Shown here one piece after another: positions 35,053 to 39,402 of a DNA stretch of 64,000 nucleotides; position 1 is the stretch's first letter, and each line of letters begins with the position of its first letter. The stretch is from assembly GCA_011605725.1 (NCBI GenBank), contig JAAOZP010000017.1, positions 320,001-384,000 on the forward strand. The letters run 5' to 3'. The notes under the pieces are model-generated. The model made no database searches. It was not told where the DNA came from and saw only the letters and a list, made by a program, of their open reading frames with translations. This DNA is from Nitrososphaerota archaeon (GTDB taxonomy: Archaea > Thermoproteota > EX4484-205 > JAAOZP01). Both the position numbers and the translations under genes were made by a program.

Positions 35053-35832
35053 TTGAACGATGCTTTTAAAGAAGGCGGGGACGTTCTCCTAGTCTCAGCC
35101 AAAGGTAAGAAAAGAGTTGTTAAGATTCAGGGAGACCGAATTCATACTCATAGAGGATATATTCAGACCGGTAGCATTATCGGTAGCAAGCCTGGGATAA
35201 TGGTTAAAACCCACACTGGAGACGAGATGCTTGCCGTTAAGCCCCTTGTTGCCGACTATATTCCTAAACTCTCCAGGAGGACGCAGATAATGTATCCTAA
35301 GGATCTCGGATACATGGTTCTAAGCCTCGGAATATCACCCGGTTTCAAGGTTTTGGACGCTGGTACTGGCAGCGGGGCTGCCGCCATGGTTATGGCAAGC
35401 CTCGTAAGGCCGACTGGAAGAGTATTCTCATACGATGTTGATGAGGAATCACTGGCGATCGCCAGGAGGAACCTTGAAAGAGTAGGCCTCCTCGAATACG
35501 TTGAGCTTGTGCACGAGGATGTTAAAACAGCCGTTTTCAAAGAGCTCTTCGACGCTGCATTAATGGATCTTCCAGACCCTTGGGAAGCCTTGCTGAACGT
35601 TTCCAGGTTTCTTAAGCCGTCGGCCAGAATATGCCTTGTACTGCCTACTATGAACCAGCTGGAGAAGGCTTACTCCGCGCTGGTAGACTCTGGAATAGCG
35701 CATCTCGAAACCGTAGAAATACTTCTGAGAAGAATAAGGCCTTTCCAGGGAAAGGTTCGGCCCGAGTCTCTGATGACTGGGCACACTGCTTACCTTATGC
35801 TTGGCGTAAAAGTTTCCAGAGAAAACGTTTAA
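35053..35832 (+). CDS. trmI: tRNA (adenine-N1)-methyltransferase
   Basis: HTHRG, RRTQIMYPKD, DAGTGSG, DLPDPW, RP...MTGHTAYL. Confidence 0.92.
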   Translation: MNDAFKEGGDVLLVSAKGKKRVVKIQGDRIHTHRGYIQTGSIIGSKPGIMVKTHTGDEMLAVKPLVADYIPKLSRRTQIMYPKDLGYMVLSLGISPGFKVLDAGTGSGAAAMVMASLVRPTGRVFSYDVDEESLAIARRNLERVGLLEYVELVHEDVKTAVFKELFDAALMDLPDPWEALLNVSRFLKPSARICLVLPTMNQLEKAYSALVDSGIAHLETVEILLRRIRPFQGKVRPESLMTGHTAYLMLGVKVSRENV

Positions 35833-35859: not shown

Positions 35860-36441
35860 TTGGAGAAGAAGGAAGCGGTTTACTCAGCTGGAAACCTGCT
35901 TGTGCTGATAGGTTTAACTGTTCTTTCAGCCTTCATGTTCGTCACAAGCCTTCAGGTCACCGGCTTTCTAAGAACCAGTGTCAATCTTTTCAGCTCCGCC
36001 CTCATATTCATAGGGTCAGTACTCCCATTCCTGCTTAAAGAGATGGAAGCTGAACAGAGAATGAGAAGCATTGGGCTAAGATGCTTTACATCAAGCTTCA
36101 TAATGTCAATACTGCTTCTGGCTCAAACAGTGTTTCGAGGATTCGCCTCAACAGTGCCGATTTTAACGTCGCTAGCATTAGGATTATCAGGCATATCGGC
36201 ATACCTTCTCTCTAGAACTGGAAGAGTCGCGATGCCGTCAATCATGGAGATACTATTGTTTGTCTCAGTAATAATGGTGTTTTCAGCGCCAATGATCCAG
36301 TTGTTTCTAATAGACCTTGGAATGAGCATTAATACTGCTAGACTAGTGTCAATCAGCATACTAATCGTGTTCACAGGAGTGCTCTATGTTTCACTCAAGA
36401 AGGCCAGTAAATCCTCTGAAACCGGTTCAAGAGAAAAATAG
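35860..36441 (+). CDS. Hypothetical multi-pass membrane protein
   Basis: About 6 hydrophobic helices. Confidence 0.65.
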   Translation: MEKKEAVYSAGNLLVLIGLTVLSAFMFVTSLQVTGFLRTSVNLFSSALIFIGSVLPFLLKEMEAEQRMRSIGLRCFTSSFIMSILLLAQTVFRGFASTVPILTSLALGLSGISAYLLSRTGRVAMPSIMEILLFVSVIMVFSAPMIQLFLIDLGMSINTARLVSISILIVFTGVLYVSLKKASKSSETGSREK

Positions 36442-36508
36442 AGCTGTTTAGCGAATGCTAGCCGTCGGACACGTAATGCTTAAAACTGTCTTGAAAAGTG
36501 TCTGAACA

Positions 36509-36712
36509 GGGTAGACCAGGCTCCTGCTCGGGGGAAACTCTGAAGCAGGCCTCAACCTCTTGAGGAGGGTACAAGCCGCCTTGACCATGGGGATTGGGCG
36601 TGAAACCCGTGGAGAGGTTGAAGCAGCCCTCCCAAGATGTTGCGGAGTAAAAGCATCCTCCTCAGGCTTGTTGAAAAGCGGATTGGGGAGGATGAGCCTA
36701 CTAGCCTGGGCC
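36509..36712 (+). ncRNA. Candidate structured non-coding RNA of unknown family
   Basis: GC-rich intergenic stretch with multiple helices containing G-U pairs on the + strand, a GAAA tetraloop, terminal pairing CCAGGCT/AGCCTGG, and TATA-like CTTAAAA at 36479. Confidence 0.5.
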
Positions 36713-37011
36713 CAAATGCTTCCCGAGACTCGCGTACATGGTTGAGACCTTGTTTAAACCATCTGACGGTTAATGCAGTAGGTGTTGTCCTCTACACCAT
36801 CTTAATGCATAACAGGTTTTCAGCTGAAGCACTTGTTGAAGCTGCGCTAATAGGCGGCTTCCTTATCGGTTACGCGGAAAACCCGCTTACCTTGAAAAAC
36901 ATCTGACTTGTGAAAAGCCTGAGACGTTTGCCATAGTAATGATAGGAGTCGTGCCTCATCCCACCCCAGCAATCCTTATTAAACCTGAGTTGTTATGCCC
37001 GCATTGTAGAA

Positions 37012-39402
37012 ATGAGTAGTCTCTTTAAATCTTCAGAGCTCCTTTTAACCTCAACAAGGATTGAACAGCTTTTCAAAAACATTAAGGATGAGCCTCATTA
37101 CTATGTGGATATGCATATCCACTCTAAGTATAGCAGGGCCACTAGTGCCAATATGACTCTCGAAAACATTGCTTTCTCCGCCAGGCTGAAAGGTCTGAAC
37201 ATCGTGGGAACCGGAGACTGTACGCATACCAAATGGTTAAAGGAGCTTAAGAAGAAGCTTGTCGAATCTTACCCTGGTCTCTACAGGTTGAGAAGCGAGA
37301 GGAATCCGGAGCAAACCACGCTCTTCCTGATTCAAGGAGAAGTTAACACCGTCTACCGTGATGAGAATGCTGTTAAAAGGATACACCACGTAATACTTTT
37401 CCCAGACTTCGACACTGTTGAACAGGCCTATGACGCTTTAAAGCATACTGGTGACCTTAATGCTGACGGGAGGCCGTTGCTCGAATGCTCTTCCCCAGAG
37501 CTTGTCGAAACCTTGAAAAGCATTTCGAAAGACATCGAGGTCTTCCCGGCGCATGTTTGGACCCCGCACTTCAGCATTTTCGGCATTCACGGCTACACTA
37601 GTGTTAAGGAATGCTATAAGGATAAGCATAGCGAGATACATGCTCTCGAAACGGGATTATCTTGTTACGATGAAAAGACAGAAGTTTTAACGGAAGAAGG
37701 TTGGAAAAAATTCTCCGAAGTAAAACCAAGCGATAAAATATATACTTTAAACCCAAAAACAGGAGAAATCGAGCTTCAACATCCCAGAGGAATCTTCTCC
37801 TACTGGTATAAAGGCAGAATGTACAGGTTGAAAACTCGAAGTGTTGATTTACTTGTCACGCCGAATCACAATCTCTTCATTACCACGTGCGACTTTAGGA
37901 ATCCAAAAACATCTTTCTTAAAGCAGGCGAGAGAAGTATTTGGGAAATCCAAAAGTTTTAAGAAGGATGGGAAATGGAACGGTAACAACGAAGAATATTT
38001 TACCCTCCCCTCCCTAGAAATTAGGCATGGAAACCGGTATTATTCTGGTCTAAGAAGAATACCTGAGAAGAAAATACCAATGAAAGACTGGTTAAAATTC
38101 TTTGGATTTTGGTTGGCTGAAGGTTGGACAACGAGGGAGAAAAACGGAGATTATAATGTTTGCGTTTCTTGCAAAGATGGGAAGTTAATTTCTGAAATGA
38201 AAAAGCTGCTTCAAAGTTTTGGATACAGGGTTTTCCAGAACAAGAAACACCATATACTTAGAGTGAGAAACTATCAGTTGTTCGCTTATCTTGAGCAATT
38301 CGGTAAACGTCATGAGAAATTTATTCCAAAAGATGTGAAAATGCTTTCGAAAGACCTTCTCAAGATATTGCTTGACTACTACATTAAAGGCTGTGGCCAC
38401 ATTCACGGAAGGACTAACAAGGGGCTATCTGCAACTACAACCTCCACAAGACTCAGAGATGACCTGCAGGAAATAGCTTTAAAGATTGGAATATCCGCCT
38501 ATTTTAAGCTCGATAAGAAAAAGGGGAATCCTTTGAAAAGTCTTTCCTCAGGAAAGAAGACTTACAGGCAGAGCAATGATTCTTGGACGGTTTATTTCAT
38601 CAGAAAAAACACACATACTGTTATTCCCTCGACCATAAGGAAAAATAAGTATATAGAAAGATGGGTAGATTTTAAGGGAAGAGTATACTGTGTATCAGTT
38701 CCTAATAAAGTAATTTATGTAAGAAGAAACGGGATTCCTGTATGGTGTGGCAATTCAGATCCTCCAATGAACTGGAGGGTTTCAAGCAATGATCGCTACG
38801 TGTTGGTTTCTAACAGCGATTCTCACTCTTACTATCCTTGGAGGCTCGGCAGAGAGGCTAACCTTATGCTCTTGGAGGATTTGAGCTATAGGAGCATACT
38901 GGATGCGATCCGTAAACAGGGCAGGTCTAGAATAATCCTCACTATCGAAACCTATCCTGAACATGGGAAATATTATCTTCCAGGTCATCGAAAATGCAAG
39001 GTTTCAGTTGACCCCGAGAAGTATTTTAAGCTTAAAGGAGTCTGCCCGGTGTGCGGCAAAAAGCTCACGCCTGGAGTAGAGACGCATATAGAAGAACTCG
39101 CTGACCGTCCTAGGGGCATAAAGCCGAGGGATGCTCCAGACTATATTCATCTCATACCGCTTTCAGAGATAATAAGCTATGTTTACTCCACAAGTTTAGA
39201 TTCCAAGAAGGCTTGGAGCATTTACTACAGTCTGGTAAAGAAGCTTGGAAGCGAATATCGTCTGCTGGTTGAAACCCCTGTGGAGAAGCTGGCAAAACAC
39301 GATAAGAAGCTGGCCTACGTGGTGGAAAAAATTAGAAATGACAGGGTTAAAATAAGGCCCGGATATGATGGAGTATATGGAAAGATTGAGGTAGTCGAAT
39401 AG
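37012..39402 (+). CDS. Endonuclease Q (PHP + Zn finger), intein-interrupted
   Basis: DMHIHSKYS, GTGD, PAHVWTP, ETGLS|SDPPM, SNSDSHS..P.RLGRE, GKY..C..CPVC, PGYDGVYG. Confidence 0.9.
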   Translation: MSSLFKSSELLLTSTRIEQLFKNIKDEPHYYVDMHIHSKYSRATSANMTLENIAFSARLKGLNIVGTGDCTHTKWLKELKKKLVESYPGLYRLRSERNPEQTTLFLIQGEVNTVYRDENAVKRIHHVILFPDFDTVEQAYDALKHTGDLNADGRPLLECSSPELVETLKSISKDIEVFPAHVWTPHFSIFGIHGYTSVKECYKDKHSEIHALETGLSCYDEKTEVLTEEGWKKFSEVKPSDKIYTLNPKTGEIELQHPRGIFSYWYKGRMYRLKTRSVDLLVTPNHNLFITTCDFRNPKTSFLKQAREVFGKSKSFKKDGKWNGNNEEYFTLPSLEIRHGNRYYSGLRRIPEKKIPMKDWLKFFGFWLAEGWTTREKNGDYNVCVSCKDGKLISEMKKLLQSFGYRVFQNKKHHILRVRNYQLFAYLEQFGKRHEKFIPKDVKMLSKDLLKILLDYYIKGCGHIHGRTNKGLSATTTSTRLRDDLQEIALKIGISAYFKLDKKKGNPLKSLSSGKKTYRQSNDSWTVYFIRKNTHTVIPSTIRKNKYIERWVDFKGRVYCVSVPNKVIYVRRNGIPVWCGNSDPPMNWRVSSNDRYVLVSNSDSHSYYPWRLGREANLMLLEDLSYRSILDAIRKQGRSRIILTIETYPEHGKYYLPGHRKCKVSVDPEKYFKLKGVCPVCGKKLTPGVETHIEELADRPRGIKPRDAPDYIHLIPLSEIISYVYSTSLDSKKAWSIYYSLVKKLGSEYRLLVETPVEKLAKHDKKLAYVVEKIRNDRVKIRPGYDGVYGKIEVVE
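37663..38754 (+). mobile_element. Intein (364 aa) with LAGLIDADG homing-endonuclease domain
   Basis: Starts CYDEKTEVLT, block B LLVTPNH, FFGFWLAEG / LLDYYIKGCG, ends VYCVSVPN...WCGN|S; removal restores ETGLS-SDPPM; AT-richer than flanks. Confidence 0.93.

Follow-up and report, generated by a model that had tools for sequence, protein, structure and literature searches.

A compactly folded archaeal non-coding RNA, absent from Rfam 15, with a base resembling the bulge-helix-bulge motif

What kind of gene is carried by a stretch of about 200 nt that an earlier note, made from its letters alone, interpreted as an undescribed RNA or an RNA switch? The window (the whole 64-kb stretch of DNA analysed, G000:C7:320001-384000; positions below refer to it and to its + strand unless stated otherwise) belongs to a MAG of 2.23 Mb that is 93% complete. 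In this window, 36509-36716 encodes a compactly folded non-coding RNA as a gene of its own, and the family of this RNA is absent from Rfam 15. The conserved block of ~208 nt begins at GGG, closes with GCCCAAA and has sharp edges: in the genus alignment, the flanks diverge and are unalignable across the genus. The sequence is single-copy in its own genome; by BLAST, all 16 other species of the genus have one copy each (16/16, 85-95% identity), and no match is found outside the genus. A covariance model built from the genus (R1) scores 246 bits at the window RNA and 220-249 bits across the genus. For 36505-36715, the minimum free energy is -107.5 kcal/mol (z -6.22), a value reached by 0/200 dinucleotide shuffles, and the - strand of the same stretch folds with a z of -2.54. 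No credible protein had been seen across the stretch; this holds, as none of the overlapping ORFs belongs to a Pfam family and conservation does not extend into the flanks. Among these ORFs is one of 89 aa (36637-36906) that overlaps the 3′ half of the RNA, has no family and is most likely spurious, because the sequence beyond the RNA is not conserved. An ARAGORN scan detected no tRNA in the window.

Known RNA families were searched at two levels of stringency. At the gathering score, Rfam 15 has no match anywhere in the 64-kb window, and at E<=10 nothing relevant is present within 36300-37050. The diverged homologues at the G017 and G018 loci are likewise without an Rfam match, and no description of such an RNA was found in the literature. 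Two known structured RNAs are found elsewhere in the same genome: RNase P RNA on contig C18 (RF00373, 195.6 bits) and SRP RNA on contig C20 (RF01857, 141.9 bits). The SRP RNA family model does not match the RNA site.

To follow the family beyond the genus, R1 was used together with R2, a 48-position model of the upper part of hairpin B. The RNA is kept by hot-spring Brockarchaeota, including three Brockarchaeia families beyond the genus, and by a few Bathyarchaeia. Outside the genus, full-length homologues score 25-72 bits under R1: 52 and 41 bits in two other families of the order (G017 and G018, respectively), 44-72 bits in four Hecatellales MAGs located after a pattern scan of named genomes, and 25-41 bits in three further Bathyarchaeia (G191, G173 and G167). 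A few metagenome contigs match R1 as well. In a fourth family of the order, f4, copies were located by synteny upstream of endonuclease-Q-like genes with the search filters off; one scores 16 bits (G023), two others occupy the same place (G019 and G025), and all lie below the reach of a default search. In total, 22 of the 26 genomes of the class and order carry the RNA (19 by R1 and 3 by synteny). Among the 151 Bathyarchaeia sampled, R1 and R2 select the same seven carriers, and none was detected in ~130 sampled genomes from other families of the phylum; diverged members could escape both counts. Weaker R2 hits in Bathyarchaeia (<=25 bits) were rejected, as they are not full-length under R1 with the filters off, and a single 25.7-bit R2 hit in another Thermoproteota family looks like chance. 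One Hecatellales genome with a full copy on C4 has a second, weaker R2 match (G159:C92:4348-4395, 26.5 bits), which may represent either a further, diverged copy or a duplicated contig.

The members of this family share a common plan: a basal helix P1, a 3-nt bulge on the 5′ strand, a second helix P2 that closes a perfect four-way junction, and three hairpins, A, B and C. In the window, the strands of P1 are GGGT (36509-36512) and GCCC (36710-36713), which pair to form the central 4-bp helix H. No homologue departs from GGG/CCC, and the fourth pair is U-A, U-G, A-U or C-G. P1 itself (covariation helix 1) is therefore nearly without covariation. The 5′ bulge AGA (36513-36515) is AAG, AGG or GAU in relatives; it is 3 nt long in every homologue and purine-rich (the sole case with a pyrimidine is GAU in G023; A second otherwise). 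The triplet AAA (36714-36716), which is AGA or AGU in relatives, is the counterpart of a 3-nt bulge on the 3′ strand. P2, the inner helix h′ and covariation helix 2, is formed by CCAGGCT (36516-36522) and AGCCTGG (36703-36709). Hairpin A (36523-36549; helix 3) is variable, measuring 21-50 nt in relatives, and is usually capped by GAAA. Hairpin B (36550-36645) has a long lower stem, a large internal loop and two upper stems, and measures 89-102 nt in the lineages outside f4 and 86-87 nt in the hand-delimited f4 copies. The 14-nt apical loop of hairpin B (GATTGGGCGTGAAA, 36592-36605; consensus GAYUGGGCNNGAAA) is nearly invariant and better conserved than any other part of the family: UGGGC and GAAA are invariant in the A10 lineages, and the f4 copies have an NNN spacer, with GGAA in G025. 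Finally, hairpin C (36646-36702; helices 10-12) contains an A-rich internal loop and a large apical loop, and measures 54-61 nt in the lineages folded, f4 excluded.

This architecture is obtained by two routes. Unconstrained minimum free energy folding was applied to 17 sequences, 16 of them distinct, from all lineages except f4; 16 of the 17 adopt the same four-way junction, and in G173 the closing helix came out shifted. Of three f4 copies folded, only that of G025 yields the junction. Covariation was measured in a model-fitted alignment of 16 diverse sequences, the fit of which leans towards the structure; the single-sequence folds, which do not rely on this alignment, agree with it independently. 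RNAalifold assigns 67 pairs to the genus alignment, of which 11 already show compensatory changes inside the genus. In the 16-sequence alignment, standard pairs fill 92.4% of cells compared with 65.2% after shuffling, and changes on both sides are found in 59 of the 67 pairs. The covariation score is 0.757 versus 0.254 for shuffled alignments, none of which scored as high (0/500), and it falls to 0.09-0.15 when partners are slid by 1-3 columns. Five of the seven P2 pairs have compensatory changes (99% of cells paired), as does nearly every pair of helices 4-9 in hairpin B. A MAFFT alignment of the whole of hairpin B registered too poorly for model building.

These data also bear on whether the structure belongs to DNA instead of RNA, as in a MITE, an integration site, a set of inverted repeats or a chance GC-rich palindrome. 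The relatives do have flanking inverted repeats that are readable as terminal inverted repeats. These repeats differ in every lineage around a conserved interior, the reverse of what is seen in a mobile element, and the element is present once per genome, in the window's own genome and in each relative. Along with the G-U pairs, the strand asymmetry of fold and model scores and the compensatory changes throughout the nested helices, this makes a DNA-level element scarcely credible. The earlier note had named a match to a known RNA, a lack of covariation and many genomic copies as grounds for abandoning its proposal; the RNA is unmatched in Rfam, covaries and is single-copy, and none of the three overturns it.

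The individual helices proposed in the note fared unequally. Its landmarks are correctly placed (CTTAAAA at 36479-36485 and GGG at 36509-36511), and four of its local pairings recur as conserved and covarying elements: CCAGGCT/AGCCTGG (36516-36522 with 36703-36709), the hairpin at 36523-36549, CCATGGG/CCCGTGG (36585-36591 with 36606-36612) and CATCCTCCTCA/TGGGGAGGATG (36654-36664 with 36684-36694). A TCAACCTCT/AGAGGTTGA helix, on the other hand, is not confirmed, as its middle pair exists in only 1 of 16 species of the genus. The bases assigned to it belong instead to the lower stem of hairpin B, which is formed with 36623-36645 and covaries. The note had overlooked this lower stem, as well as the four-way junction and the likeness of the base to a bulge-helix-bulge.

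A long-range pairing between ACAAGCC (36571-36577), on the 5′ side of the internal loop of hairpin B, and GGCTTGT (36665-36671), in the apical loop of hairpin C, had also been suggested, and it corresponds to a pseudoknot whose pairing is kept in other lineages. The second strand is 100% paired in the genus. In each lineage, the 6-7 nt that immediately precede the upper stem of hairpin B pair with the apical loop of hairpin C. Pairing is kept with changed sequence in G017 (CUGCCGG/CCGGCAG), G018 (CCGUCGA/UCGGCGG), L071 (CCGCCCU/AGGGCGG) and G173 (CUGCCUG/CAGGUAG). A position-restricted test against shuffles gives a combined p of ~2e-5 over 8 lineages, for segments picked by eye; a broad duplex-energy test against shuffles is not significant (mean z -0.6). 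Such a pseudoknot would keep hairpins B and C side by side. A candidate second pseudoknot was noticed by eye between the 3′ side of the hairpin B internal loop and the 3′ part of the hairpin C loop, for example UCUACCCG/CGGGUAGA in G191 and GCUUAC/GUAAGC in L071. The TGAGGAGGGT/ATCCTCCTCA pairing, which the note described as competing, is strong only in its own genome (-20 kcal/mol), weaker in the genus and absent elsewhere.

Another set of contacts may involve the base of the molecule. CCCA could pair with the invariant UGGG of the hairpin B loop instead of with the GGG of P1. GGG, CCCA and the UGGG of the loop are invariant while every other helix covaries, which suggests a sequence-specific role for CCCAR. 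One possibility for this role is pairing with YUGGG once the 5′ GGG has been removed. The variable position fits such pairing only partly: ten lineages have C-G there and most of the genus has U-A, with C.A mismatches in five species and an A.A mismatch in G167.

The arrangement of junction and pseudoknot raises the question of whether the RNA is catalytic, or a paralogue resembling RNase P or MRP RNA. The catalytic domain of RNase P RNA has a P5/P15-P17/P6 layout, which the junction and the pseudoknot between the B and C arms resemble, and the 5′ GGG followed by an A-rich bulge before P2 recalls its GGAAAG-P4 region. In several species, the hairpin B loop also holds GGGCUUGAAAC, an 11-mer that is present in the genome's own RNase P RNA. 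These resemblances are short and count as leads, not as tests. Against them, models of RNase P, type T and MRP RNAs give no match at E<=10 to the RNA site or to its diverged homologues, the RNA has no long-range helix of P4 type, and a complete canonical RNase P RNA is already encoded in the genome. The type T model (RF02357) has 0 matches in the genome; as the control also matched nowhere, this search is uninformative alone. Overall, a catalytic RNA or RNase P/MRP-like paralogue is considered very unlikely. As for the 11-mer itself, the copy in the RNase P RNA (L002:1149-1441 on G000:C18) is the same as that in the consensus apical loop of hairpin B, and the two may represent a shared T-loop-like module or a chance identity.

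How would the ends of the RNA be generated? The base of the molecule points to an archaeal bulge-helix-bulge signal. The hBHBh′ form of this motif is defined by a 4-bp central helix and two 3-nt bulges on opposite strands (PMC7714728). In 11 of 11 lineages outside the genus, an outer helix of 7-12 contiguous bp abuts P1; it is made from the 5′ leader and the 3′ trailer, its sequence differs in each lineage, and each has a p of 0.0005-0.026 against shuffles. The order in these relatives is the outer helix, a 3′ bulge (AGA/AGU), GGGN/NCCC, a 5′ bulge (AAG/AGG/AGA) and P2, and the exact hBHBh′ geometry with a 0-nt linker is found in G019, L058, L086, G191 and G173. The window copy has the 4-bp helix and bulges (GGGT/GCCC, 5′ AGA and 3′ AAA), as well as an inner helix h′ in P2 beside the 5′ bulge. 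In contrast to the relatives, the window and 7 sampled species of the genus have an outer helix of <=3 contiguous bp (p>0.1). Since the outer helix h is missing, the window copy can be no more than a relaxed HBh′ form, yet across the genus neither P1 nor either of the A-rich triplets varies. The two-subunit EndA of TACK type has a wider substrate range and accepts relaxed motifs (PMC7714728). The window's genome encodes two EndA paralogues (PF01974; open frames of 188 and 200 aa), the number of which fits a putative two-subunit enzyme, together with the ligase RtcB. The RtcB gene lies in an open frame of 985 aa (G000:C9:4894-7695; L145, L146), and its Pfam match is split into two parts (3-50 and 46-426) that are ~1.5 kb apart, so that it looks like another intein bearer.

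The promoters differ between the genus and its relatives in parallel with the outer helix. In the window, a TATA-like box (CTTAAAAC, 36479-36486) precedes the first G of the RNA by 23-30 nt. A corresponding box (CTTAATAC, TTAATTAC or TTATTTAC, with CTTAATAC in most species) is present at approximately -31 to -23 from GGG in 16 of 16 species of the genus, with a spacer that varies. In the lineages with an outer helix, TATA lies at -45 to -33 from GGG, which leaves just enough room for the leader strand; the box in the genus is thus ~10-15 nt closer to the RNA. An oligo-T run follows the trailer strand in most lineages. With the outer helix gone and the TATA-like box at about -31 to -23, the predicted start of transcription in the genus is the first G of P1 or a base beside it. 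Further upstream of the box (36455-36478), a block, TAAGCCGYCGGAYACGTAAYGC, that contains the small palindrome CCGNCGG is retained in one subclade of the genus, and only CGCAAYCC in the other; the block is possibly a BRE plus a regulator site.

Based on these features, a maturation pathway can be proposed in which the bulge-helix-bulge motif would serve to release and circularise the RNA. In the relatives, the "exons" would be no more than the leader and the trailer, the strands that make up the processing helix. EndA would cut both bulges and RtcB would join the ends of the released RNA, which would produce a circle of ~200 nt. In the window's genus, the outer helix would have been lost and the promoter moved, so that the 5′ end would be set by transcription start at GGG. 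The resulting RNA could either be trimmed and circularised by a broad-specificity two-subunit EndA or remain linear with P1 closed. The canonical cut of the splicing endonuclease, as known from tRNA introns, falls after the second bulge base, and the circle predicted in the window extends over 36515-36715 (201 nt). Judged from these motifs, circularisation is rather likely in the relatives. It is less certain in the window's genus, since the full motif is absent there, and for these species we put its prospects slightly short of even.

A second question is whether the RNA acts on, or together with, a neighbouring gene. Downstream of it lies an endonuclease-Q-family gene (TIGR00375, 37012-39402), a recurrent neighbour that forms a separate transcription unit. 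This gene is interrupted by an intein with a LAGLIDADG domain, and the N- and C-terminal parts of TIGR00375 are matched separately; similarly split matches in frames of ~800-870 aa are found in G006 and G010 of the genus and in G168, G191 and G212 of the Bathyarchaeia. It has its own TATA box (CCTTATTAAAC, 36974-36984) ~28-30 nt before the ATG, a spacing that implies a nearly leaderless mRNA. On the other side of the RNA lie a gene for a TrmI/GCD14-type tRNA m1A methyltransferase (35053-35832, +) and, between it and the RNA, a gene for a 193-aa protein with no family and a hydrophobic C-terminus (35860-36441, +), found in the genus only. In G017, the order is trmI, RNA and endoQ, without the gene for the 193-aa protein. 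In Hecatellales, the RNA is followed after 64 nt on the same strand by a gene of metallo-beta-lactamase fold (NCBIfam PRK04286, hypothetical; L058:5305-6228, - strand, and the same place in L059 and L124) and then by the gene for ribosomal protein L22.

The association with the nuclease gene would be explained if the RNA worked with or regulated this PHP-type enzyme as a cofactor, guide, decoy or inhibitor. In the Brockarchaeia, genus g1 and families f2 and f4 have the TIGR00375 gene directly downstream of the RNA, with both on one strand. Within the order, the same 22 of 26 genomes have both the RNA and the gene, and the same 4, from two lineages, lack both. All seven RNA-bearing Bathyarchaeia have the gene (7/7), and in one clade it is placed tail-to-tail with the RNA at 24-30 nt (G173 and G167) or lies 2.5 kb off (L106). 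The gene is present, however, in 97 of the 151 Bathyarchaeia sampled while the RNA is present in only 7, which argues that the enzyme works without the RNA, and a pattern search of 30 Bathyarchaeia endonuclease-Q loci recovered the RNA within 1.5 kb at a single locus, which was already known. RNA and gene are non-adjacent in Hecatellales, G018 and G191, and they have separate promoters. Furthermore, the nuclease tree agrees with the species tree, and the three Bathyarchaeia with the adjacent arrangement fall into one clade, which leaves just two independent lineages for adjacency; it may have been kept from an ancestor. A functional partnership with the nuclease is therefore viewed as rather unlikely.

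The same neighbourhood bears on the remaining part of the earlier interpretation, that of an RNA switch. As a riboswitch-like cis leader, the RNA would control the endonuclease-Q gene through alternative pairings; it is indeed upstream of that gene on the same strand in Brockarchaeia, and alternative pairings are present in its own genome. These pairings are not conserved, however, and a fixed place in a 5′ leader, co-transcription and an expression platform were not found for the RNA. In Bathyarchaeia the two genes converge, Hecatellales, G018, L086 and G191 have unrelated genes beside the RNA, and within the order the distance from RNA to gene ranges from ~90 nt to 8 kb. Both units also carry their own signals, TATA and oligo-T for the RNA and TATA for the gene. 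Because neighbours are not conserved across the family, the RNA is not the leader of a particular gene. A cis-acting switch is thus highly improbable: "undescribed RNA" stands, in agreement with the lack of an Rfam 15 match, and "RNA switch" does not.

With these alternatives weighed, that the locus specifies a separately transcribed, tightly folded RNA of a new family, which would undergo a known kind of maturation, appears well supported by the comparative analysis. The explanation that best covers the whole, a non-coding RNA gene with a base of bulge-helix-bulge type whose product would be a stable trans-acting RNA, its expression being predicted, is held to be moderately probable. The product is probably a stable, trans-acting structural RNA in circular form and would likely be the core of a ribonucleoprotein, with scaffolding as its most plausible function. 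Its working surfaces would be the invariant hairpin B loop (UGGGC..GAAA) and the invariant CCCAR beside the junction. A bolder proposal is that the RNA is a subunit, guide or regulator of an as yet unrecognised ribonucleoprotein built around the endonuclease-Q PHP nuclease, or a new circular ribozyme. Although quite improbable, it would have distinct consequences: the ribonucleoprotein version would be a second machine in archaea that combines an RNase P-like RNA with a PHP-fold protein, and the ribozyme version would draw its active site from the UGGGC..GAAA loop and the CCCAR junction loop. To our knowledge, large and intricate RNAs without a family are rare in archaea, and past examples have often been ribozymes or cores of ribonucleoproteins. 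The repeated adjacency to a DNA-repair nuclease gene offers a concrete first hypothesis. As the organisms are uncultured, the family is reachable only through sequence or reconstitution.

Three known systems provide points of comparison. The RNA resembles the catalytic domain of RNase P RNA (RF00373, RF02357) in belonging to the size class of the minimal type T, in its A-rich strand before a conserved helix, and in a multi-helix junction with a pseudoknot that joins an internal loop in one arm with the apical loop of its neighbour. Unlike RNase P RNA, it matches no model of that family and lacks a P4 helix as well as the CR-I and CR-V consensus. The SRP RNA of Thermoproteus is reportedly circular and processed through a bulge-helix-bulge by the tRNA-splicing machinery, and it is likewise a structured, housekeeping-type non-coding RNA of Thermoproteota with such a motif in its transcript. 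That RNA, however, is a permuted version of a known universal RNA whose order is restored in the circle, whereas the RNA described here is unpermuted and belongs to no known family. The circular intermediates of pre-16S and pre-23S rRNA and the tRNA introns processed by EndA and RtcB share the hBHBh′ geometry (PMC7714728). Unlike in these substrates, no host RNA is present, and the "exons" here amount to just a leader and a trailer of ~10-25 nt. The central helix and bulges hardly vary in sequence, a constancy that recognition by EndA would not by itself require, and the window's genus is without the outer helix. The family would join the few RNAs that EndA and RtcB process, as a "host-less" substrate. 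Moreover, the contrast between one lineage that would set the end of the RNA by transcription start and relatives that would set it by the tRNA-splicing machinery amounts to a natural experiment on why archaea circularise stable RNAs.
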